Source: a virus. From it: a DNA stretch of 64,000 nucleotides. The position numbers and the translations under genes are program-made. This document shows, piece after piece, positions 3,069-59,272 of the stretch (its first letter is position 1; each line of letters opens with the position of its first letter). The stretch is from positions 1 to 64,000 of IMG/VR virus record IMGVR_UViG_3300008267_000022. One strand, 5' to 3'. The notes under the pieces were generated by a model, which was not told the DNA's origin, made no database searches, and saw nothing but the letters and a program-made list of their open reading frames with translations.

Positions 3069-3329
3069 TTAGATGTTATTAAATTCTTCATTAACTAATT
3101 CTATTTCTTCTGTTACTCTCTCAAGTTCTTTAGAAATCATTTCTTTAATAATCTCTCTGTTAAAAAAACTAACCTCATCTTTTCTTGAAAATGGTCCTGG
3201 GTGGGTAAATTTAATTTTTACTTCCAAACCACAAGATTTAAGAGCAGCTTCTAATTTACGTTTTTGTCTTTCCAACCTATCAAGATCTTCTTTAATCTTT
3301 TTAGCTTGCTCAAATTTTTCTATTTCCAT
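3069..3329 (-). CDS. hypothetical coiled-coil protein
   Basis: AAAGTTATG leader; TTTG-type promoter upstream. Confidence 0.65.
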   Translation of the reverse strand: MEIEKFEQAKKIKEDLDRLERQKRKLEAALKSCGLEVKIKFTHPGPFSRKDEVSFFNREIIKEMISKELERVTEEIELVNEEFNNI

Positions 3330-3469
3330 AACTTTTATTTTAATTCTTTAAATATATGTATATACCTTATCGATGCCAAAGATTTTTACAAGAAGAAGAA
3401 TTTGGGATCCGTGGGGTTTTAAAAAGATGGGTAAAATGGAATTTTAGGATTAAATTATGGGTATATATA

Positions 3470-3655
3470 GGGATATACAAGCTCGATGTGAAAGGGTCGT
3501 TTTCGAGCTGTAAAGACGTCTAAACCTCCCTTTTTCGGTCCCCCGCATATATTGACCACTGCGCGCGTGGGGCCCTACCCGGGTATAACTGCCATATATA
3601 TACCGCCGACGTACGGCCCCAACACCCCCCTACCCCTTATAAGGGTAGGTCTCCT
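3470..3655. other. GC-rich non-coding island with palindromes and G-runs
   Basis: GACGTC, GCGCGC, GGGCCC, TACCCGGGTA, CGTACG; minus strand GGGGTAGGGGGGTGTTGGGG. Confidence 0.6.
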
Positions 3656-3861
3656 TCCTCTATGACCTGGTTCTTCCAATTTATAACTCCCGGAAGCGGG
3701 TCTTCAAAATTCTCAAGTGCTTGGATTATATCATACTTTACCTGAGCCATATCTAACACATTCAGGTTCTCTGTCTTGTAACCTAATGCTGTTAACAGGT
3801 CGTGTACTGCAAAGAATTCATCTACTACACTCACTTCTTTTACTCGCTCTAACTTTTTCAT
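3637..3861 (-). CDS. hypothetical early protein
   Basis: Own promoter/leader cassette. Confidence 0.7.
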   Translation of the reverse strand: MKKLERVKEVSVVDEFFAVHDLLTALGYKTENLNVLDMAQVKYDIIQALENFEDPLPGVINWKNQVIEEGDLPL

Positions 3862-3902
3862 ATTATCTTTTTTTAATTATACTTAAATATACGACAAGTC
3901 AG

Positions 3903-4055
3903 CTACACATTTGGTTCCGTTGCTTCAGCTTTAATTAAATACTTATTTATCTCATTCATACACTCTTCAGCTGCTTCAACATCACCTGTTCGTTTGAAAT
4001 AAATGTAATCGTCCATTAACGCATGAACTAAATTTAAAATGTTTTCTTGATTCAT
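3903..4055 (-). CDS. small hypothetical protein (50 aa, not in ORF track)
   Basis: Promoter cassette; MNQENILNLVHALMDDYIYFKRTG... Confidence 0.65.
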   Translation of the reverse strand: MNQENILNLVHALMDDYIYFKRTGDVEAAEECMNEINKYLIKAEATEPNV

Positions 4056-4156
4056 AACTTTATCTTTTTAATTATACAACGAATATACGAAACGTTATTT
4101 TACTTTTTATCGTCTTAAAAATGTACTTAAACTCATATGTCTCTGCTTTAAAATAA

Positions 4157-4184
4157 AAGGGGTACTATATTTCAAGTACCCCTA
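4157..4184 (-). terminator. intrinsic terminator
   Basis: GGGGTACT/AGTACCCC stem then TTTT on minus strand. Confidence 0.65.
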
Positions 4185-4201
4185 TCTTGTTATTTTACTT
4201 A

Positions 4202-4624
4202 TTAACCTGCTACCTCATCTTTAGCTTTAGCTGGGCGTCCTCGCTTAACCACTCCTCCATTCGCTTCAGCCTTAGCTTGTAATTCAGCTAATCTAACTTG
4301 TCTAGCCGATTCTGAACTTACAGGGCGGCCACGTTTCAATTCGCCATTTGCTCGTTTCGCCTCTAACTCATTTAAACGAACTTGTCGAACGGAACTTGTA
4401 TCTACAGGTCGTCCACGTTTAAGCTCTCCATTTGCTCGCTTTGCCTCTAACTCAGCTAAACGTACTTGCCTTGCTGAACTTGTATCTACAGGTCGTCCTC
4501 GCTTACCTGTTGTTTCCGGCTTGCTCATTCCTGCAAGCATTTCTTCTAATACTACGCTTTTCATTGAATGCGCTTTCTCAATTCCTGCTGCTTTTGCTGC
4601 TGCTACTAATTCATTTCTGTTCAT
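4202..4624 (-). CDS. AT-hook (KRGRP) repeat DNA-binding protein
   Basis: Four KRGRP motifs in ~28-aa tandem repeats. Confidence 0.75.
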   Translation of the reverse strand: MNRNELVAAAKAAGIEKAHSMKSVVLEEMLAGMSKPETTGKRGRPVDTSSARQVRLAELEAKRANGELKRGRPVDTSSVRQVRLNELEAKRANGELKRGRPVSSESARQVRLAELQAKAEANGGVVKRGRPAKAKDEVAG

Positions 4625-4677
4625 AACCTTAATTTTTAATTATTACTTATTTTAATTATACCTCAAATATACGAATT

Positions 4678-4830
4678 TTAAAACGAAGCATTGGTCCCAT
4701 ATACAAACGAATTGTATATAATAACTGATACTAATGTTGTTACTACTCCAACTAACAATGCTATTGTCAATTTGTCTTTTCGGGTTAATTTCTCCGTTTT
4801 GTTTACTGTTTGATTTACTGTTTTACTCAT
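4678..4830 (-). CDS. small membrane protein (50 aa)
   Basis: Promoter cassette; hydrophobic LTIALLVGVVTTLVSVII. Confidence 0.6.
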   Translation of the reverse strand: MSKTVNQTVNKTEKLTRKDKLTIALLVGVVTTLVSVIIYNSFVYGTNASF

Positions 4831-4882
4831 AACTTTTATTTTTTTAATTATACACTAAATATACGAACTCAATTTTACTCAC

Positions 4883-5020
4883 TTACTCCCCACTAAAACT
4901 AATAGAACCAAATTGGGCATAATTCATTTCACCCATAATCATAGCTCCCACTATAATAATTAAACCAATTATGGCTGTTGATGCCATCAAACCTAAAATT
5001 AAATTACTTACTAACTTCAT
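4883..5020 (-). CDS. small membrane protein (45 aa)
   Basis: Promoter cassette; MKLVSNLILGLMASTAIIGLIIIVG. Confidence 0.6.
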   Translation of the reverse strand: MKLVSNLILGLMASTAIIGLIIIVGAMIMGEMNYAQFGSISFSGE

Positions 5021-5085
5021 AACTTTGCTTTTTTTAATTATACTTTAAATATACGAATTTGACTTTTAACTAATTTGTCCTGTGC

Positions 5086-5274
5086 TTAATTACTCTGCAT
5101 CATGTAATGGACGATATAACCTAATTCTTCTTGGGTAAATAATGGCTCGCCCTCCCCAATCCATTCTCTCATTTGGAATTGAACTATGGCAGCTATGTCT
5201 TGCCCATTTATACACCCGTTTTCAAGATGCCTCATCGCAATTTGGTATTGCGTCTCAATAATAATTTTATTCAT
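5086..5274 (-). CDS. hypothetical early protein
   Basis: Promoter cassette. Confidence 0.65.
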   Translation of the reverse strand: MNKIIIETQYQIAMRHLENGCINGQDIAAIVQFQMREWIGEGEPLFTQEELGYIVHYMMQSN

Positions 5275-5331
5275 AACCTTTATTTTTAATTATACACTAA
5301 ATATACGAATTGTGTTTTACTGTTTTTATCC

Positions 5332-5410
5332 GACACCGAAAGCCCACTTGCGTGAGCTTCCAATGCCGTATAATTAAAAAAGATAGGGCTGTTTTCCGGC
5401 ACAACCCCAA
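5332..5410 (-). ncRNA. candidate antisense sRNA: hairpin - anti-leader segment - GNRA hairpin
   Basis: GGGTTGT/ACAGCCC stem, then TATCTTTTTTAATTATAC, then 16-bp stem with GCAA loop. Confidence 0.5.
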
Positions 5411-5416
5411 GCCATG

Positions 5417-5686
5417 CTATCCATGTAGTAGAATTTCTTTATATTTCTCTAACACCTCAGCTATTTGCTGTGCATTGCCCTTCACCCCAAAATACCATTT
5501 CACATCTGTAATTTTCCACATTCGGTGTGGCTTAATCCCTTTGCTATATAACTTAACATCACGGATTGAGGTAATCAAATTCCAATAACCAACGGGCATT
5601 GCCCCCCCGTTCACACTAATACTTTTACCCAAATCAGCTTGGAACTTAGTTCCATTAATTGCTTTAACCATTTGTTCTAATTTCAT
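5417..5686 (-). CDS. hypothetical early protein
   Basis: Promoter cassette. Confidence 0.7.
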   Translation of the reverse strand: MKLEQMVKAINGTKFQADLGKSISVNGGAMPVGYWNLITSIRDVKLYSKGIKPHRMWKITDVKWYFGVKGNAQQIAEVLEKYKEILLHG

Positions 5687-5731
5687 AACCTTTATTTTTT
5701 TAATTTATACTTGAAATATACGAATGTGATT

Positions 5732-5956
5732 TTAATTAACTTGTTCCTGCAATTTAGCTAGACACTCTGGGCACCCCACTTCCTCAATACCCTCATAACG
5801 GGCGTGGTTGGAGCTTAATGCTGGTGTTCCACATAAATTACCTGACCCAGGTCCAAATCCTGATTTGTAGGCATGAGCGGTCCCTGACCATACGTTTCCT
5901 TTGTTTCCAAAAATTGAATACTCGGGTCCTAAATCTTTAATGTTTACTTTTTTCAT
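5732..5956 (-). CDS. small putative zinc-binding protein
   Basis: H...LCG...CPEC. Confidence 0.6.
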   Translation of the reverse strand: MKKVNIKDLGPEYSIFGNKGNVWSGTAHAYKSGFGPGSGNLCGTPALSSNHARYEGIEEVGCPECLAKLQEQVN

Positions 5957-6013
5957 AACTGCTTTTTTTAATTATACCTTAAATATACAAAATGTATTTA
6001 TTAATATTTATTC

Positions 6014-6208
6014 CTACTTTAAACTAATAATTAAATCAAATAATAAATCCTCTAAACTATCATCACCCTTCCACCCTCTCTTATACAAATAATATTCTTT
6101 TACATCTGTTAAGGTTTCTAATTTATCAATATCTTCTTTTACTTCTAAAGCAAATTCTTCTCTACTTACTTCACACTCAAATTCAAATACTTTTTTACTT
6201 AATTTCAT
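6014..6208 (-). CDS. hypothetical early protein
   Basis: Promoter cassette. Confidence 0.65.
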   Translation of the reverse strand: MKLSKKVFEFECEVSREEFALEVKEDIDKLETLTDVKEYYLYKRGWKGDDSLEDLLFDLIISLK

Positions 6209-6267
6209 TTTTTTATCTTTTTAATTATACACTAAATATACGAATTGTGTTTTAATTATTTTATTCC

Positions 6268-6411
6268 TTAACAATAATGATAATCAATAAACTTTTTACA
6301 AGTGTCTTTATCATCAAAATCAAATCTATTTCCATTAGCATCATGTATGAACCATCCAATCAATTCATCAAACTTAACTAACATACCTCTATATACAAAC
6401 ATATTATTCAT
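6268..6411 (-). CDS. small hypothetical protein (47 aa)
   Basis: Promoter cassette; hand translation. Confidence 0.55.
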   Translation of the reverse strand: MNNMFVYRGMLVKFDELIGWFIHDANGNRFDFDDKDTCKKFIDYHYC

Positions 6412-6416
6412 AACCT

Positions 6417-6602
6417 TTATTTTTTAATTATTTTAATATACGGTTCGGTTTTTACTTCTTTCATTCCCTTAATTATGGCTTCAATGACTTTTTCTTTTAA
6501 GTCCTCGCCACCTAGTGCCTCACATTTTTGTAAATACAAGGTAATGTCATTAGTGATTGCTTTTAAGCTATCCCACTCTGATTGGATGTTTGATTTTGTC
6601 AT
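6417..6602 (-). CDS. hypothetical early protein
   Basis: Promoter cassette. Confidence 0.6.
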   Translation of the reverse strand: MTKSNIQSEWDSLKAITNDITLYLQKCEALGGEDLKEKVIEAIIKGMKEVKTEPYIKIIKK

Positions 6603-6638
6603 AACTTATCTTTTTTTAATTATACTTAAATATACGAT

Positions 6639-6761
6639 TTAATCTTGATAGCTTTTGTTCCCTTGATGCTTGTCTTTTCGGGTGTATTTTTTCTTATTTT
6701 TATACACGTTTGGCCTTGTCGCCATCCTTATTTCCTGAATTGTTATTTCAATTGTTTTCAT
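6639..6761 (-). CDS. small basic protein (start MKTIEIT)
   Basis: Promoter at ~6770-6810 places the start at 6761; KNKKKYTRKDKH. Confidence 0.6.
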   Translation of the reverse strand: MKTIEITIQEIRMATRPNVYKNKKKYTRKDKHQGNKSYQD

Positions 6762-6854
6762 CTCTTTTTTCTTAAATATACGAAAGTTGTCTTGGTGAAA
6801 GATATCCTGAGCAGTAAAATGGCCTGCACACCTGTGCAAGCTTTGTTTTTAATT

Positions 6855-6980
6855 CCGCTTTGAACATTAATGGTTACCTTTCCTGAGCCAAATTACTAGG
6901 TAGTGGAGGGAAGCATTCGCAATATCGCACCTACGCCGAAGCACCGTTCTGTTTAATCCAGGAACAACGTTATGTTCTAT
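6855..6980 (-). ncRNA. candidate structured ncRNA
   Basis: Nested pairings GAACAT/ATGTTC, CCTGGATTAAA/TTTGGCTCAGG, TAGGT/ACCTA; C(UUCG)G hairpin. Confidence 0.4.
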
Positions 6981-7019
6981 AATACATATGTGAATATACT
7001 AATTTTTCCTTAATTTTCC

Positions 7020-7145
7020 AACCATTTTTCACCACTTTTTCACCCCCCTTTCCCCCGTTCCCCCACGGGGGGACATGTTTGTTCATGCTTTTTGTATATA
7101 CTTTTGAACCAGAATGAAAAGGGGCGGGGCGATGTGAATGGGGGT
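7020..7145. other. second GC-rich G/C-run island
   Basis: cacccccctttcccccgttcccccacggggggac; ggggcggggc. Confidence 0.55.
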
Positions 7146-7667
7146 TAGATAAACCATTTTCTTATACCATCTACTACCAAACACACTTTCCACATACCAT
7201 ATACAATTTTCATTTTGATGATACCCATCATTGACAATTCACATTCCCCACGTTGATTTTCATTCCACACATTAACAATTTCCTTTCTTGTGTTATCTTG
7301 ATGATTTCCACTTATTTGACAATTGCCATTGACAATGCTCATTTGCGTTATTTCCACGTTAATTCTCATTTATTCTACATCTAAATCTTGAGTAACTAAC
7401 AATGCCCATCCTACTAATAACAAAAATACTACCATAACATTTCAATTTAAAATGATATCAAATCAATTGCCATTTCCCCTATTCCTTTTCCATCACGAGT
7501 TATTTCATAATTCGGATCCATTCCGCTTATCATAACATCATTTATCAACTCATTCATTGTGTTGAATTCCTTCTTGTAATAACTACATTTTAAACTATAC
7601 ATAACTTATCTTTTTTTATTATACACTGAATATACGATCTATCTATCTATTATTTATTTCCTCTATA

Positions 7668-7868
7668 TTATTCTTCAAATCTCCATTTCAAAAATGCTCC
7701 CTCTACTCTACCTATTCCTCTATTAACTATTTCATCTATAAAGTAATTCCATCCAGTGCCAGGAATACTATTATAAATTTCAATGCATTTAAGTTTATCC
7801 TGTTTATCAACAGCATTCATTAACAATTCTAATTTGTTATTTACTAGCTTAAATGTTTTTTCTTTCAT
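7668..7868 (-). CDS. hypothetical early protein
   Basis: Promoter cassette. Confidence 0.65.
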   Translation of the reverse strand: MKEKTFKLVNNKLELLMNAVDKQDKLKCIEIYNSIPGTGWNYFIDEIVNRGIGRVEGAFLKWRFEE

Positions 7869-7909
7869 CTCTTTTTTTTCTTAAATATACGATTTATATT
7901 TTATATTTT

Positions 7910-8125
7910 TTATTCCTCAATTATTTTATCTATAAATTCCATTACTTCCTCTACTAGTTCCTCTTCATCAATTGCATTTCCATCTTTGCTTTTCAATGAA
8001 TAATCAATTACTTTTCCATCTGTAGCATCAGCTAGTTCTGTATAGATCAATATTCCTTCTGTTGGGTGTTGAATTGTAAAGCTACGTTCAATAACGGCAT
8101 TTACTGTTTGTTTTAGAATTTCCAT
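7910..8125 (-). CDS. hypothetical early protein
   Basis: Promoter cassette. Confidence 0.7.
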   Translation of the reverse strand: MEILKQTVNAVIERSFTIQHPTEGILIYTELADATDGKVIDYSLKSKDGNAIDEEELVEEVMEFIDKIIEE

Positions 8126-8972: not shown

Positions 8973-9363
8973 AACCTTTATTTTTAATTTGCTTAAATAT
9001 ACGAATTTTTATTTATACCATTCATCCTCTTCACCATACCAATTATTTTCTAATTGGATACCCATTTCACTTAGGTATTCAACATAACTCATTCTATCTT
9101 CGGGATGCGCTTCGCGTTGATATTTTTCCCATGCTGCTCTTAATTCTGCTTCGCTTTTCATTTTCTATTTTTTATTATTTCAACATAACTAGCTCCATCA
9201 TAACCATTACTAGCCCATTTATCTAGTTCTGCCTCGTTTAATGTATATGCTAATCCTTCAATTTCTTCAATTGACATTTTATCAATTTGTTTTGCTGTAT
9301 AACTCATAACTTTTATTTTTATATTTTAAATATACGAAAAAACCCTCTTTCGAGGGTTTCCAT

Positions 9364-11291: not shown

Positions 11292-11373
11292 AACTTTTAT
11301 TTTTTTAATTATGAATTAAACATACGAAAAGCCCTCTTTCGAGAGCTTTCCTTTTTATTATTTTTTGTATTTA

Positions 11374-14596: not shown

Positions 14597-14639
14597 AACC
14601 TTTATTTTTTAATTATACCTGAAATATACGAAAGCTCTC

Positions 14640-15413
14640 TTAATTGAGAGCTTCCTTTTTAACTTGTTTTGAAAACTGTTCTAACAATTCCTCTGGACTT
14701 AAATTATCATATTCAACATCTTTTTTCTTAAACATAACATCTCTGTCATTGTATGAATCAATTCGAAATTCAATGAAACTACCTGATTCAAATTCAACCT
14801 TAACTGTATCAAACGAACCATAATACTTTGCATAGTCACGTCCACTTGTAACTGTAGCTGAAGGGTACAATGTTTTATATTTTTCAAGTGTAGCATTTAG
14901 CAATGCAGTTGTTTTGTTATATTCTTCAAATCGACGTTTTTCCTTTTCATTATGCTCCAACAATTTAGTTAATAATGTACTTGGTTTAACATAACGAGAT
15001 TGTTCTTGAATACTCCATGATTGTATTTTGTCTCGTTGAACATCAAAACCAAACACACCATCTTTTAATTCTTTAGTTGTTGTATCAAAACGTTTACCTA
15101 ACAAACTAACCCCACCTGTACAGAACTTTGCTGTAACTTCAGTTTCAAATTGAGTTTGATTGTAACTATAACCTAATGTTACTTTACGTGTGTCAGTGAA
15201 TGATTTGAAATCGTTTTTGAAATGAACATCTTTAACAAATCCTGCATCAATGAGCATCTTTTCAATTCGTTGACGTTCATTTTCATGGGATGTGGTGCTT
15301 TTTTCTTGGTTAGCAATGTATGTATCAACTTGTTTTTGTTGGTCAGGTGTTAACAACACACCTGCAAATAAATCCAATTGATTTGGATCCTTAATTTCTT
15401 CTAAATTTTCCAT
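14640..15413 (-). CDS. hypothetical protein with N-terminal QLDLF clamp-binding-like motif
   Basis: DPNQLDLF. Confidence 0.65.
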   Translation of the reverse strand: MENLEEIKDPNQLDLFAGVLLTPDQQKQVDTYIANQEKSTTSHENERQRIEKMLIDAGFVKDVHFKNDFKSFTDTRKVTLGYSYNQTQFETEVTAKFCTGGVSLLGKRFDTTTKELKDGVFGFDVQRDKIQSWSIQEQSRYVKPSTLLTKLLEHNEKEKRRFEEYNKTTALLNATLEKYKTLYPSATVTSGRDYAKYYGSFDTVKVEFESGSFIEFRIDSYNDRDVMFKKKDVEYDNLSPEELLEQFSKQVKKEALN

Positions 15414-17472: not shown

Positions 17473-18054
17473 TTAATATACGAATTCTATTTTATCTTTT
17501 AATACCCTTTTCAAATTAGCTTTAGCTTTAAATAAATTTGATTTAGATGTACCTTCACTGATGCCTAATTCATTTGCAATTTCAGCATGAGAATATTCTT
17601 CAATAACATACATGTTAAATACTATTCTATAAGCAGGAGATAATTTAGCTACTGCTTCTAACATTAACTTAGTAACCCTTTGTTGATCACCTTGCAATTC
17701 AAAATCATATATCTCATCATGATCAGTTGTTTTAAACATACTATCCTGGTCACTTAATGTTATTTTTCGTTTTCGTTTTCGTTCTCTAAGCTTATCAATT
17801 GCTAGATTAACAATGATTCTTTTCATCCAGAACCAAATGTCAACTGTAAAGTTATATGTTGATAGTTTATTAAATATTTTAATAAACCCTTCTTGGAGTA
17901 CTTCATTAGCATCATCTTCATTCCCCATATACCGATAACTAAGAGACATTAATCGACCAGCATAGGTATCAAATAGGATTTTTTGGGATTTTCTATCATT
18001 GTTGATGCACCCTTTAACGATATCTTCTATTTTATTTTTAACTTGGTAATCCAT
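17473..18054 (-). CDS. RNA polymerase ECF-type sigma-70 factor
   Basis: Region 2 DANEVLQEGFIKIF..WMKRIIVN; region 4 LSPAYRIVFNMYVIEEYSHAEIA..LGISEGTSKSNL. Confidence 0.93.
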   Translation of the reverse strand: MDYQVKNKIEDIVKGCINNDRKSQKILFDTYAGRLMSLSYRYMGNEDDANEVLQEGFIKIFNKLSTYNFTVDIWFWMKRIIVNLAIDKLRERKRKRKITLSDQDSMFKTTDHDEIYDFELQGDQQRVTKLMLEAVAKLSPAYRIVFNMYVIEEYSHAEIANELGISEGTSKSNLFKAKANLKRVLKDKIEFVY

Positions 18055-18112
18055 AACTCTTATTTTTACTTAAATATACAACTTTATCTTAATTAAAAAA
18101 TATCCTTTGATA

Positions 18113-18147
18113 AAAAACCTGCCGCACGCTTGCAGTCGCACGGCAGG
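18113..18147 (-). terminator. intrinsic terminator of structured RNA
   Basis: 11-bp CCTGCCGTGCG/CGTGCGGCAGG stem plus TTTTT. Confidence 0.7.
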
Positions 18148-18173
18148 AAAAGAAACGGTTATGAAGCGTTTTG

Positions 18174-18245
18174 TAGTCAGGGTGGGATTCGAACCCACGG
18201 GTACCTATCACTTTTCGATTTATTAAATCTTATAGTAACCTGACC
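18174..18245 (-). ncRNA. tRNA-like RNA (acceptor and T arm, no canonical D or anticodon arm)
   Basis: GGTCAGG/CCTGACT-A; GTGGG-TTCGAAT-CCCAC. Confidence 0.65.
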
Positions 18246-18311
18246 TACCCCGAATTTTCTAGTAGCGGCACTTTTACGCGGCCGTCGGTTCTACTTGCGA
18301 CGATTTTTTGC

Positions 18312-20818: not shown

Positions 20819-20878
20819 AACCTTTATTTTTTATTTATACTATAATATACGAAAACCCTCTTACGAGGGTTTTCCTTT

Positions 20879-22928: not shown

Positions 22929-22993
22929 AACCTTTATTTTTTTAAATTTATACCTTAAATATACAAAAAAACCCCTTATAAAAGGGGTCCTTT

Positions 22994-23569
22994 TCAAGCT
23001 TCAAAATTAATCCTACCTTCACTTAGGTATTTATTAATATATAACTCGGGATGAGCTAAAAATGATTCAATTTTACTTTGTACATCAATCGCTTTCTCAG
23101 TGAATTCTTGCTTTAATCGGGCTTTACCCATTTCAACTAATTCAGGTAATTCATAAGCACAATCCCCCCATCGAGCAATAAGTATTTTTTCCGTATTCCA
23201 CGTATAACCATTATCTCTATCTGATTGGGTTCTATATTTTTCCCCTACAATAATTGGGTCTGGGTTTTTATCGTCGTACCATACTTTAATGAAGTCAAAC
23301 ATTTCATTTTCCTTAATGAATTTAATAGCACGTAATACTTCTACAGGTATAGTACTTCTACTATAACTTTCTAAACTAGTACTAGCAGGGCATAATGCTT
23401 GTAATGCTCTAACTTGTACTGTATTTAATGTTTGGTAAACACTAGGCGTTTTACCACTTTTAACTTCAGGAATACCTAATTCCTCTGCTAATTGTTGGTA
23501 CTCTGCTAGCTCATCTTCGTTTAACAATAAACCTACATTTTCAGGTTCTCGATAAATTTTAACTTCCAT
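22994..23569 (-). CDS. hypothetical early protein
   Basis: Promoter cassette; DPIIVG...IARWG. Confidence 0.7.
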   Translation of the reverse strand: MEVKIYREPENVGLLLNEDELAEYQQLAEELGIPEVKSGKTPSVYQTLNTVQVRALQALCPASTSLESYSRSTIPVEVLRAIKFIKENEMFDFIKVWYDDKNPDPIIVGEKYRTQSDRDNGYTWNTEKILIARWGDCAYELPELVEMGKARLKQEFTEKAIDVQSKIESFLAHPELYINKYLSEGRINFEA

Positions 23570-53418: not shown

Positions 53419-55350
<1,932 letters not shown>

Positions 55351-56542: not shown

Positions 56543-59272
56543 CTAGTTGAAATTAAAGAATTTTGCTTTAAACGGGTTCAAATTTAATACCCACCCAATG
56601 TCATTGTATACGCCTTCCAACTTGTTTCTAATTACACTATCAAACAAACCATCACGATCAATATACTTATTAATTAAATCTGTTACCTCAGATGGATCGT
56701 TATATCCGTTATACCCCATTACTTCTATTTGGTATGGGTTTGGTTTTAAAATAGCAATATACATTTTATCTCCAATTGTAAATTCGGGATACTTTACATG
56801 AAGGTTTTTATGTCGTAAATAGTCATTGTAAATAATAGCTGCTTTTGTATTAACAGGACATTTTAATTTTAATTTAGAGAATAACTCACCAGGCATAGGT
56901 TTACGCTCAATATATTCACCCATTTTCTTTAATCCAGTTGGTTTAAGTAATTTAATCCACTCTACAGTTTGAATTGAGTTTTTAAAGTCCATTACATCCT
57001 TATCTATTTCTTCTTTTGATTTACTAAATAAGATGTTTTTGATAAGCTGTTCTCCAAAGTTTCTAAAGTAAGGGGGGAAATTAGATTTCATAATATCCAA
57101 TCCTTTCATTTCAAGTTCCTCAATTGGTACCCCCTCTTTATTTACAATATACATAGCATAACGACGTTTACCGGACCAATATGCTTTTTCAGCAATTACT
57201 TCTTGTTTTAATTCAAAATAATGCTTGCCATGCATATTAAATAAATCTTGAGTAATATTATTTAAATTAGCATTTGCTACTGTTTGAAGTTCACTTGTTA
57301 ATGTTAATAATCGTTTAATTTTTTCTTCACGATCATTATAATCTAAATCAGGATTGCGTTTTTTAAGTAAATCCGTTAACTCCATATAAAGTGAATCTGT
57401 ATCTGAAGCGATAACAAATGTTTTAGGGTCAATTTCAAGTTGGTCTGATATATATTGGTTTACAAAAGTGATTGATTCTTTGGTTAGGCGTTGGCCACTG
57501 TTTGTAATTGCTGCAGAACATATTTTAAATCCATCAGTAAAGCGCCATGAATTAATTGCATATGTACCGTATAAAGCGTTTTGTAAGATTTTAAATGCCA
57601 TTTGGTACAAATCATATAATTTATAGTTTGCCCAATCTTCTGCTTTACCTGCTTTTTTCTTAAGTGCTCTATAATGCTCTCGTTTTCCAAACCAATCTTC
57701 TAATACTTCACAAGCAATACTTTTTTTACTTGTTGTAAAAAATGCTCCACTAGCAGATATGGTCCACTCATTATCTTCTATAAGTCTAATAAGAGCACCT
57801 ATTGTTATATTTGCATCTTTTAATTTATAAGAATATTTATTTAATCTTTGTATGTGGATTTTTTCTTCAGGGTCACGTTGTTTTAATTGTTCAAGTGAAT
57901 TATATTGCTCATAATTAGTTTTAGTAACAATTCTACCCATTAACGTTTCAACACCTAAATTCAATGATTTAATAATTGAAGGATATAGTGAGGTAAAGTC
58001 AAGGTCACTTACATCTGAGTATAATCCAGGTATAGGGTCAAGTAGGTAGCCTCCAGCGTATGAGTCTTTTTTCTTAATAGTTTTAGGGTTTCGAGCAATG
58101 TACTTCCCAGCTGCTGTTTTAACTATAACTTGATTTTCTTCAAAACTATAAACAATACCTTCAACGGTTGGAGTACCTCGTTGTTGCATAACAGGATCAC
58201 CTAATTCTAATTCTCTAATTAAAGGGTTAGTAGTAGTTGGTTTGTTAGGTGCAATTATATTTTTACGTTTTAAATACGTTAAAATAGCACCTTCATTCAA
58301 TGCTGTATTGTAGTAGATAGATTCGTAAGGTGTATGGCATAGGTGGGAAATTAAAATAGTTAATTCAATAAACTTTTGTTTTTCCTCTAACGCCTCTATA
58401 ATCTCAACATCTCGAATATTATAATCTATAAATTTATTTGGATCTTCTTTAAATAAGGTATCTAAATTACCATTATATTCAATTTTACCTAATTTAGCAT
58501 ATTTAGTTCCAATATCACCTAACTTATATGATGGTTCTTCCTTCATAATATATTTACGAAGCAAATGCATATAGTCTAAGCTATTAACTAACCCAATACG
58601 AATCGGCGAATTTGGTTGAGATGGTACTTCTTCAACTTTACCCACAGGAGATAACCGATTTACCGCATCTCCTAAACGTTTTTTAATTCTGTAATATAAA
58701 TATGGAATATCAAAGAAATCACTGTTATAACCTACAACAATAGTAGGGTCCATTTGTTCCCACTTGCTTAAAAATTTATTTAATAAAGTGTTTTCATCAG
58801 GACAAGGTACAACTTTTTTACCCTCTGAATCAATTTCTTCAATGTTATTTGCTTTATCTAAAATAAAGCATATTTTTTCTTTAGTAGAGGTATCAATTAA
58901 AGCAATTGCTGTTATTTCAGCATTTGCTTCTTTAATTGTTTGGGGTGTAAGTGCACCTAAAATTTCAATCTCAATATCTAAATAAACTGTATTATGGTAA
59001 GATGGCATTTCATCGGTTTCGGAATATAAATCTCTTAGTAATACAATTTCACGATCAATATCTTTTTCTAAGATAGTAGGATCTTTTCTATCGTATTTAC
59101 CTTGAAGAGCAGAACATCTATCACCAAATAATGTTTCAAATTCACCATCTTCATCAAGTTTATAAACAGTGGGCCAATATTGGAATTTATGTATTCCTTT
59201 TTTATCATCCCGTAGAAAATAATGCCATTGATCTTCTCCAGGTAATCTATTATAGAAAACCGATTGGTACAT
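56543..59272 (-). CDS. family B DNA polymerase
   Basis: DIE, GYNSDFFD, YN..D, DFTSLYPS, K...NALYG, SDTDS. Confidence 0.96.
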   Translation of the reverse strand: MYQSVFYNRLPGEDQWHYFLRDDKKGIHKFQYWPTVYKLDEDGEFETLFGDRCSALQGKYDRKDPTILEKDIDREIVLLRDLYSETDEMPSYHNTVYLDIEIEILGALTPQTIKEANAEITAIALIDTSTKEKICFILDKANNIEEIDSEGKKVVPCPDENTLLNKFLSKWEQMDPTIVVGYNSDFFDIPYLYYRIKKRLGDAVNRLSPVGKVEEVPSQPNSPIRIGLVNSLDYMHLLRKYIMKEEPSYKLGDIGTKYAKLGKIEYNGNLDTLFKEDPNKFIDYNIRDVEIIEALEEKQKFIELTILISHLCHTPYESIYYNTALNEGAILTYLKRKNIIAPNKPTTTNPLIRELELGDPVMQQRGTPTVEGIVYSFEENQVIVKTAAGKYIARNPKTIKKKDSYAGGYLLDPIPGLYSDVSDLDFTSLYPSIIKSLNLGVETLMGRIVTKTNYEQYNSLEQLKQRDPEEKIHIQRLNKYSYKLKDANITIGALIRLIEDNEWTISASGAFFTTSKKSIACEVLEDWFGKREHYRALKKKAGKAEDWANYKLYDLYQMAFKILQNALYGTYAINSWRFTDGFKICSAAITNSGQRLTKESITFVNQYISDQLEIDPKTFVIASDTDSLYMELTDLLKKRNPDLDYNDREEKIKRLLTLTSELQTVANANLNNITQDLFNMHGKHYFELKQEVIAEKAYWSGKRRYAMYIVNKEGVPIEELEMKGLDIMKSNFPPYFRNFGEQLIKNILFSKSKEEIDKDVMDFKNSIQTVEWIKLLKPTGLKKMGEYIERKPMPGELFSKLKLKCPVNTKAAIIYNDYLRHKNLHVKYPEFTIGDKMYIAILKPNPYQIEVMGYNGYNDPSEVTDLINKYIDRDGLFDSVIRNKLEGVYNDIGWVLNLNPFKAKFFNFN

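Follow-up and report, generated by a model that had tools for sequence, protein, structure and literature searches.

One copy of the leader shared by the early genes of this phage stands inverted, beside hairpins, at the end of an early gene. What could a backward leader be for? We use the term window for the whole stretch of DNA that was analyzed, 64,000 nucleotides of an 83.7-kb IMG/VR viral contig, which is its source genome. The phage is uncultured and from freshwater, and its host is probably of the Flavobacterium type; the DNA runs containing it were from freshwater and estuary samples. A DNA search of the cultured-phage collection with positions 4000–8000 of the window gave no match. 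The nearest cultured phage as judged by GroEL is Flavobacterium phage immuto (vB_FspM_immuto) with 57.8% identity, and the element described here is absent from it (best E 0.39). The window encodes the GroEL chaperonin (PHROG 5725) at 53419–55056 and a family A-type DNA polymerase at 56543–59272, both on the minus strand. Every gene in the first 23 kb is on the minus strand, mostly in small cassettes, and the early control regions have the format GGA-N20-TCGTATATTT-N3-GTATAATT-A5-7-...(G)GTTATG. Bacteroidota hosts initiate translation without a Shine-Dalgarno sequence, and unstructured A-rich leaders are needed for translation.

An inverted early leader and its hairpins

The inverted copy is in the 3′ UTR of the early gene P0001 (5417–5686, minus strand; from the ORF list and its translation), an ORFan of 89 aa. 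Pfam and PHROGs searches with P0001, P0002 and two neighboring genes gave no match. Homologues of P0001 in four viral contigs (L003-L006) are followed by the same element. In gene-sense (minus-strand) order, the TAG stop of P0001 is followed by hairpin 1, the segment UAUCUUUUUUAAUUAUAC, hairpin 2 and a GGA; sequence and fold agree here with the order of hairpin, segment and hairpin given in a preliminary description of the locus. Hairpin 1 (5384–5409, minus strand), found by a terminator scan and by folding, has a 9-bp stem and an 8-nt loop and is followed by UCUUUUUU. The scan scored it as similar to an intrinsic terminator, with 9 pairs, four of them G-C, and the tail UCUUUUUUAA; its U-tract (U6) overlaps the segment. 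The segment itself (5368–5385, minus strand), which we call the anti-leader, is the reverse complement of the leader GUAUAAUU-A6-GAUA and is unpaired in the MFE fold. It includes what we refer to as the invariant core, UUUUAAUUAUAC (5368–5379, minus strand). Hairpin 2 (5331–5368, minus strand) carries a GCAA tetraloop on a stem that was first described as 16 bp and is in fact folded with 17 pairs, six of which are G-U. It abuts, with no gap, the GGA (5329–5331, minus strand) of the next early promoter. The control region of this next cassette (5272–5331, minus strand) includes the -7 box TCGTATATTT at 5300–5309, the leader box GTATAATTAAAAA at 5283–5295 and the ATG at 5272–5274, and it would be the cis partner of the anti-leader. 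Directly after the stop codon of P0001, CAUGGCUU (5409–5416, minus strand) is a possible anti-start-codon half, an assignment of low confidence.

The minus strand of a 131-nt stretch folded at -45.5 kcal/mol (z -5.70, with 0 of 200 shuffles as good), whereas the plus strand of the same stretch folded at -19.6 kcal/mol (z +0.85). Because the minus strand folds and its complement does not, the structure is that of the gene-sense RNA; hairpin 2 can form only in this RNA because six of its pairs are G-U. Hairpin 2 has no U-tract and is not listed by the terminator scan of the window. It is followed by GGAUAAAAACAG in the window and by GGGAAUAUGG, GCGUAAAAC or AUG in relatives. The element has neither a promoter of its own nor a U-tailed terminator. 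Rfam at the gathering threshold found only three tRNAs in the whole window, and an Rfam scan with E-values up to 1 over L001 (window 3800–6930) and L036 found one tRNA only. In run X1, a DNA contig that is 96% similar over 5065–5988 has G>A at 5332 (C>U in the RNA), by which the second-to-last G-C pair of hairpin 2 becomes G-U and pairing is kept. Metatranscriptome contigs from three runs were short, mainly from relatives, and mostly matched repeated promoters; their cover over 5376–5459 is zero, and they are uninformative on expression and RNA ends.

With at most one mismatch allowed, GTATAATTAAAAA was found in 17 copies, against 1.71 expected. Sixteen are on the minus strand at promoter or leader positions and all face genes, and the only copy on the plus strand of the 83.7-kb genome is at 5368–5380. 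The earlier claim that 5368–5385 is the sole inverted copy of the leader therefore stands. The leaders at 3861, 4055, 6208 and 6602, said to be one bulge from a perfect match, read GTATAATT-A5/A7-GATAA; the inverted copy has A6, and the bulge is a difference of one A.

The extent of the inverted homology was compared with the likely start of the early mRNAs. The -7 element of F. johnsoniae spans T-12 to G-5 and has the form TAnnTTTG, in which T-12 and A-11 are nearly invariant (PMC6847099). When this geometry is applied to TATATTTA-GTGT-ATAATT, the predicted start is the first A of GT|ATAATT, and the predicted 5′ end of the early mRNA would read AUAAUUAAAAA.... The inverted homology runs from this predicted start (±2 nt) toward the ATG and never includes the -7 box. 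With the start site taken from geometry, these bounds fit complementarity to an RNA and not a copied promoter.

At a distance of 11 bp downstream of the -7 box GTATATTT (e.g. 5283–5309), the leader box GTATAATT differs from it at a single base. In L047 (7755–7940) the second box is sometimes GTATATTT itself, and many promoters of relatives are without a second box. Possible readings of the doubled box are a tandem -7 element and a sigma-dependent site of pausing. Terminator hairpins were also seen inside early-promoter spacers in the arrangement GGAA-stem-GNAA-stem-TTTC-GTATATTT, at 9338–9361, 11326–11351, 14630–14655, 20851–20874 and 22965–22994 (minus strand). At the base of each stem are the upstream GGA and the TC that precedes the -7 box, which itself also serves as the U-tract.

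Conservation and covariation of the element in relatives

Pattern scans and a covariance model retrieved 44 copies of the element in about 25 uncultured freshwater viral contigs. There are 1–3 copies per genome, with two in a complete 166-kb genome and one in the genome of the window (73.5 bits). Conservation in relatives, which the preliminary description had put forward as a check, was thus found, and the element is a family that is new here and is not in any catalogued RNA family. A broad hairpin pattern mostly drew unrelated GC-rich terminators of other phages, and these were discarded. The core UUUUAAUUAUAC is exact in 38 of the 44 copies and in 20 of 23 when retrieval used the hairpin alone, and it is usually extended to UUAUC. 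Hairpin 2, which has 15–17 bp across the family, covaries: 94.7% of cells are paired, compared with 18–65% in slid controls, and the 35 double-change cells compare with 8.7 ± 2.4 in shuffles (0 of 500 shuffles as high). The anti-leader stretch is unpaired in all six copies that were folded and lies 0–2 nt from the hairpin. The core is kept while the arms and loops of the hairpin and the flanks vary.

The two closest relatives, L010 and L024, lack hairpin 1 and keep UUUUAAUUAUAC and hairpin 2, the latter with GAAA or GUAA loops and compensatory changes. Hairpin 1 is present with compensatory changes in copy 1 of L019 and in L027. By these sequence comparisons, conservation as a unit is limited to the anti-leader and hairpin 2, with hairpin 1 as an optional part. 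The proposal of an ~80-nt RNA flanked by two hairpins finds no support here, as hairpin 1 is missing in L010 and L024 and is terminator-like, such that it would end transcripts inside the segment. The notion that the segment is a mere U-tail of a terminator was likewise dropped in view of L010 and L024.

The copies occur in two contexts. About 20 are 0–4 nt before the GGA of an early promoter, and their upstream neighbor is an ORFan, an AT-hook gene or a tRNA-like RNA. About 17 precede a conserved 57-aa gene without an early leader, at 2–25 nt from its ATG; no homologue of this gene was found in the genome of the window. Three copies, in L010, L024 and L027, consist of the hairpin only. In L019 (2807–3764), as well as in L015, L016, L025 and L031, element copies flank an 88-aa cassette in direct orientation, and the order is AT-hook gene or tRNA-like RNA, element, early promoter, 88-aa gene, element and 57-aa gene. 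The 88-aa gene is recognized by ...LDLHDEVCDQDF and the 57-aa gene by M[ST]T..FI..NQ.RILNIDGNLD. In L010, L018 and L024 the hairpin ends 2–4 nt upstream of the ATG of the 57-aa gene.

Two other arrangements were seen in relatives. A conserved intergenic region of ~95 nt holds the anti-leader-like GTTATTAYCTTTAATTATATTTTAAT without a hairpin and with a TTG 20 nt upstream; it is found in L017 (8441), L018 (3163), L020 (5244), L024 (4588), L030 (3891), L032 (3505), L045 (4128) and L049 (4550). This region has a decayed start region (AAAGGTTATAAAG), precedes a conserved gene (MKNKELVLRRLESLEGKLKR...) and is absent from the genome of the window. In L008 (~3300–3480) and L009, a distant homologue of P0001 is followed downstream by an insert of ~85 nt that is GC-richer, looks structured and is enclosed by the arms of a long perfect inverted repeat (ATATAACAATAAACAATAGGGC ... 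GCCCTATTGTTTATTGTTATAT).

A single inverted copy is likewise present in this genome for GUUAUGAA, the remaining half of the early start region; it is in a hairpin loop at 18158–18165. For GTTATGAA, there are 22 sense copies and this single inverted one. The loop belongs to the mini-hairpin AAACG-CUUCAUAAC-CGUUU (18153–18171, minus strand; from sequence and fold) and is complementary to GUUAUGAAG. Two loci of the window therefore hold halves of an anti-start region, each with a hairpin. The surroundings of the second locus (18105–18260, minus strand) include a tRNA-like RNA (acceptor and T arm), the mini-hairpin, a strong 11-bp terminator and the next promoter. At 18.1 kb, a canonical terminator occupies the spot of the big hairpin of relatives. 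In L020, L029, L030, L033 and L047, a mini-hairpin ACCG-CUUCAUAA-CGGU is directly 5′ of the anti-leader and hairpin, and its stem has a compensatory change in L029. Because the CUUCAUAA loop complements GUUAUGAAG, which is the early start region, the combined unit reads in reverse complement as the full early leader plus ATG, and both halves are contiguous in these relatives. In L018 (6201), UUCAUAAC is in the loop of the big hairpin. No gene target was found for the long inverted leader-plus-ATG copies, as GTTATGAAGCGG occurs only within elements and no gene starts so; direct reading of the opposite strand of these copies revealed no conserved ORF.

Co-change of the segment and its target had one informative variant only. 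The anti-leader of L047, UUAUCUUAAAUAUAC, matches the variant leader box GTATATTT that is used by two L047 leaders. A-run lengths track loosely, and a U-to-C change in L045 (8044) breaks one pair. The matching of segments to own versus foreign leaders is uninformative on co-evolution because the core is invariant and the A-run lengths alone differ.

Predicted pairing with early leaders in cis and in trans

The explanation we favor, in which we have about even confidence, is that the anti-leader pairs with early leaders at the RNA level, in cis when there is a cassette downstream and otherwise in trans. A role in RNA is indicated because the G-U pairs make the hairpin specific to the sense strand and because the segment is strictly adjacent to it. 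The module would ride on gene-sense RNA, as part of a 3′ UTR here and of a tRNA-like trailer or an intercistronic spacer in relatives. Most transcripts in the window would first be stopped by hairpin 1 and its U6. The read-through RNA would carry the anti-leader, hairpin 2 and the next cassette, and the anti-leader would occupy the leader and start region of that cassette in cis, such that its translatable RNA would be the product of its own promoter only. The exposed segment would also be available in trans for other early leaders. Pairing would block translation, since a leader without a Shine-Dalgarno sequence must be unstructured. The key pairing partners would be AAUUAUAC in the segment and GUAUAAUU in the leader, and the model needs GUAUAAUUAAAA inside early mRNAs. 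While the sequence relation, the strand-specific structure, the conservation and the covariation are shown, we infer transcription past hairpin 1, the presence of the leader bases in early mRNAs, the pairing itself and repression by it.

Pairing in cis was modelled on the read-through RNA from 5255 to 5430. The anti-leader was predicted to pair with the leader of gene 5274, with hairpin 2 enclosed, and CAUGGCUU to pair with the AUG region AAGGUUAUG of the next gene in both the MFE and the centroid folds; by direct reading, CAUGGCUU is not conserved in L019 or L027. The cis pairing in the window is worth -3.8 kcal/mol in the model, and the mean unpaired probability of the gene 5274 leader is 0.27 in the read-through RNA compared with 0.61 in the own-promoter RNA. 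Among true early cassettes, the only ones predicted to be equally closed are gene 5274 and the gene after the 18.16-kb piece; the gene with its ATG at 18054 ties with gene 5274 for the lowest leader accessibility predicted in read-through RNA. In 16 of the 20 copies that precede an early cassette, at least 8 of the 12 core nt are predicted to pair with the leader of that cassette. A complement of the start region upstream of the promoter, which is the mark of T4-type sequestration, was thus found in silico for these 16 of 20, and it is inapplicable to about 17 copies. As modelled, cis pairing accounts for the window no less well than global silencing in trans does. It is not general, because about 17 copies have no downstream leader and the next leaders in L010 and L024 lack the box. 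For the whole family, the copies before the 57-aa gene and those in L010 and L024 would therefore need pairing in trans or with the 5′ leader of the same mRNA.

Segment-leader duplexes of -12 to -17 kcal/mol were predicted with 13 leaders, whereas shuffled segments had a mean of 1.07 leaders at -12 kcal/mol or better and a maximum of 10. Several observations count against the pairing model. Hairpin 1 and its U6 may stop most transcripts within the segment, the element lacks a promoter of its own and hairpin 2 a U-tail, and the predicted duplexes are AU-rich and modest. Co-change of segment and target was seen in one variant (L047), and the nearest cultured phage, immuto, has no copy. Against pairing in trans, 1–3 copies of the element would face about 20–40 abundant early mRNAs.

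The preliminary description had read the locus as one sRNA that could silence a whole class of early mRNAs or else titrate a leader-binding factor. What stands of the sRNA is a conserved, non-chance inverted leader that is predicted to be single-stranded and to end no more than 2 nt from the predicted start, with anti-start-codon motifs alongside it in relatives and at 18.16 kb here; its delimitation by two hairpins is not supported. Titration is likewise not supported; the segment is the complement of the leader and not a copy of it. A more far-reaching proposal is that a dedicated anti-start-region RNA of Bacteroidota phages switches off translation of the whole early class. Such an RNA, released from 3′ UTRs or tRNA-like trailers, would pair through an exposed stretch of 12–18 nt, and sometimes an anti-AUG loop, with the 5′-terminal leader common to that class. 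We consider this proposal tentative and the balance of probability to be against it.

Alternative explanations and known systems

The alternative that survives best, although we find it unlikely, is that the element forms or processes RNA ends. The AU-rich stretch would be an entry site for a nuclease and hairpin 2 would mark or protect the ends, while the likeness to the leader would be the scar of an ancient inversion, retained for a sequence-specific RNase or RNA-binding protein. The location of the element agrees with this, since it invariably lies between cassettes, with a gene or tRNA-like RNA before it and the next GGA 0–4 nt after it. So do the canonical terminator at the homologous 18.1-kb spot of the window, the hairpin-only copies in L010, L024 and L027, and the copies that are complete inverted leader-plus-ATG pieces, as inversion would leave. 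A scar should decay, however, and here 12 nt are exact in 38 of 44 copies beside a hairpin that varies. The explanation also leaves the recurring anti-start loop motifs and the L047 variant that tracks the leader type unaccounted for, and hairpin 2 has no U-tract.

It appears improbable that the segment is a promoter in the sense direction. In this case, TATCTTTT would be a -7 box (TAnnTTTG) with a start near ..TATAC, and hairpin 2 would be the protective 5′ end of a longer second transcript of the next gene. The sequence is suggestive in that TATCTTTT fits the -7 consensus in the window and in most copies, with T in place of G-5, and TATCTTTT-N-AATTATAC aligns directly with TATATTT-AGT-GTATAA of the early promoters. 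However, about 6 of 14 context types lack the TA while AAUUAUAC is invariant (TA-less: L019 copy 1, L027, L014, L024, L025, L032 and L048), and the distance from box to hairpin shifts with the T-run (T4–T8). Terminator-promoter junctions of this phage usually consist of a hairpin and then a T-rich -7 box, and a similar TTATCTTTAATTATA is present in a conserved intergenic region of eight relatives; yet the element has 1–3 copies per genome, and this genome has no other sense copy. In L023 (12630–12699), an early promoter of canonical type (TTCGTATATTTCAGTATAC) stands in place of the segment, in register and in front of the same hairpin; this speaks for a promoter, although a deletion between TATA microhomologies can account for it.

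We are similarly doubtful that GTATAATTAAAA functions as DNA, read either as a double-stranded site or by sigma as a -7-like element in either orientation, with the inverted copy as an extra operator, roadblock or antisense promoter. A DNA-binding factor would account for the invariance in both orientations, but not for a copy that is always inverted and always abuts a hairpin possible only in sense RNA. That the leader box GTATAATT nearly copies the -7 box GTATATTT, and is identical to it in L047, suggests a role in promoter DNA; however, neither -7 box 1 nor a GGA is present in the antisense direction, and the target downstream in that direction is inconsistent (P0001, an AT-hook gene, a tRNA-like RNA or the 88-aa gene). 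The anti-start motifs in RNA loops would be unexplained as well. A chance resemblance is hardly credible, for although U6 tails a terminator-like hairpin and A-rich leaders and U-rich tails are complementary by composition, the exact 13-mer is present as a single inverted copy and is conserved in about 25 contigs, including copies without hairpin 1.

Pairing of an anti-leader with early leaders would have counterparts in known systems. In T4, the start regions of genes e, 49 and I-TevI are folded up in a stem of the long early transcripts, and the late promoter is inside that stem. This start-region sequestration was reportedly described by McPheeters and colleagues in 1986. The element resembles it in having a complement of the start region upstream of a promoter, in belonging to the temporal control of a phage, and in that the RNA made from upstream is predicted in silico to be silent and the own-promoter RNA to be open. 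Unlike the T4 stems, it is a portable, invariant module that is tied to its own hairpin and matches the consensus leader of a whole class, and it also occurs without a following leader. The c4 RNAs of P1 and P7 and the CI RNA of P4 are cut from a longer sense transcript and have exposed stretches that base-pair with the ribosome-binding regions of phage genes. They act in lysogenic immunity on one or two targets, are processed by RNase P and are cloverleaf-like, whereas here the leader that would be targeted is common to at least a dozen early genes of a phage of lytic type, and there is no match in Rfam.

Among bacterial RNAs, CpxQ, SroC and 3'ETS-leuZ similarly have a conserved single-stranded seed by a 3′ hairpin, in a 3′ UTR or after a tRNA-like RNA, and the 3′UTR-5′UTR pairing of icaR in Staphylococcus aureus resembles possible pairing with a 5′ leader, perhaps of the same mRNA. 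The element differs from all of these in having no U-tail and no Hfq context, in its Bacteroidota host and in that its processing is putative. As for Rho-independent terminators, hairpin 1 with U6 fits the type, whereas hairpin 2 is instead followed by GGAUAAAA or an A-rich sequence. In T4, RegA is a protein repressor of many early mRNAs, and RegB is a nuclease that cuts early ribosome-binding sites. The proposed shut-off is likewise a class-wide one of early translation through a common feature of the start region; the agents are proteins in T4 and, as proposed, RNA here.

To our knowledge, the ending of the early phase is known in detail for few model phages only and is protein-based there, and few sRNA mechanisms are known in Flavobacteria. 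The pair AAUUAUAC and GUAUAAUU is ready for testing RNA control in these bacteria. If there is a dedicated RNA, it would be the RNA counterpart of T4 RegA and RegB. A conserved RNA mirror of the early leader would be a simple, portable and sequence-programmed means of control, with two possible uses: insulating cassettes from read-through and shutting off a whole class of genes.
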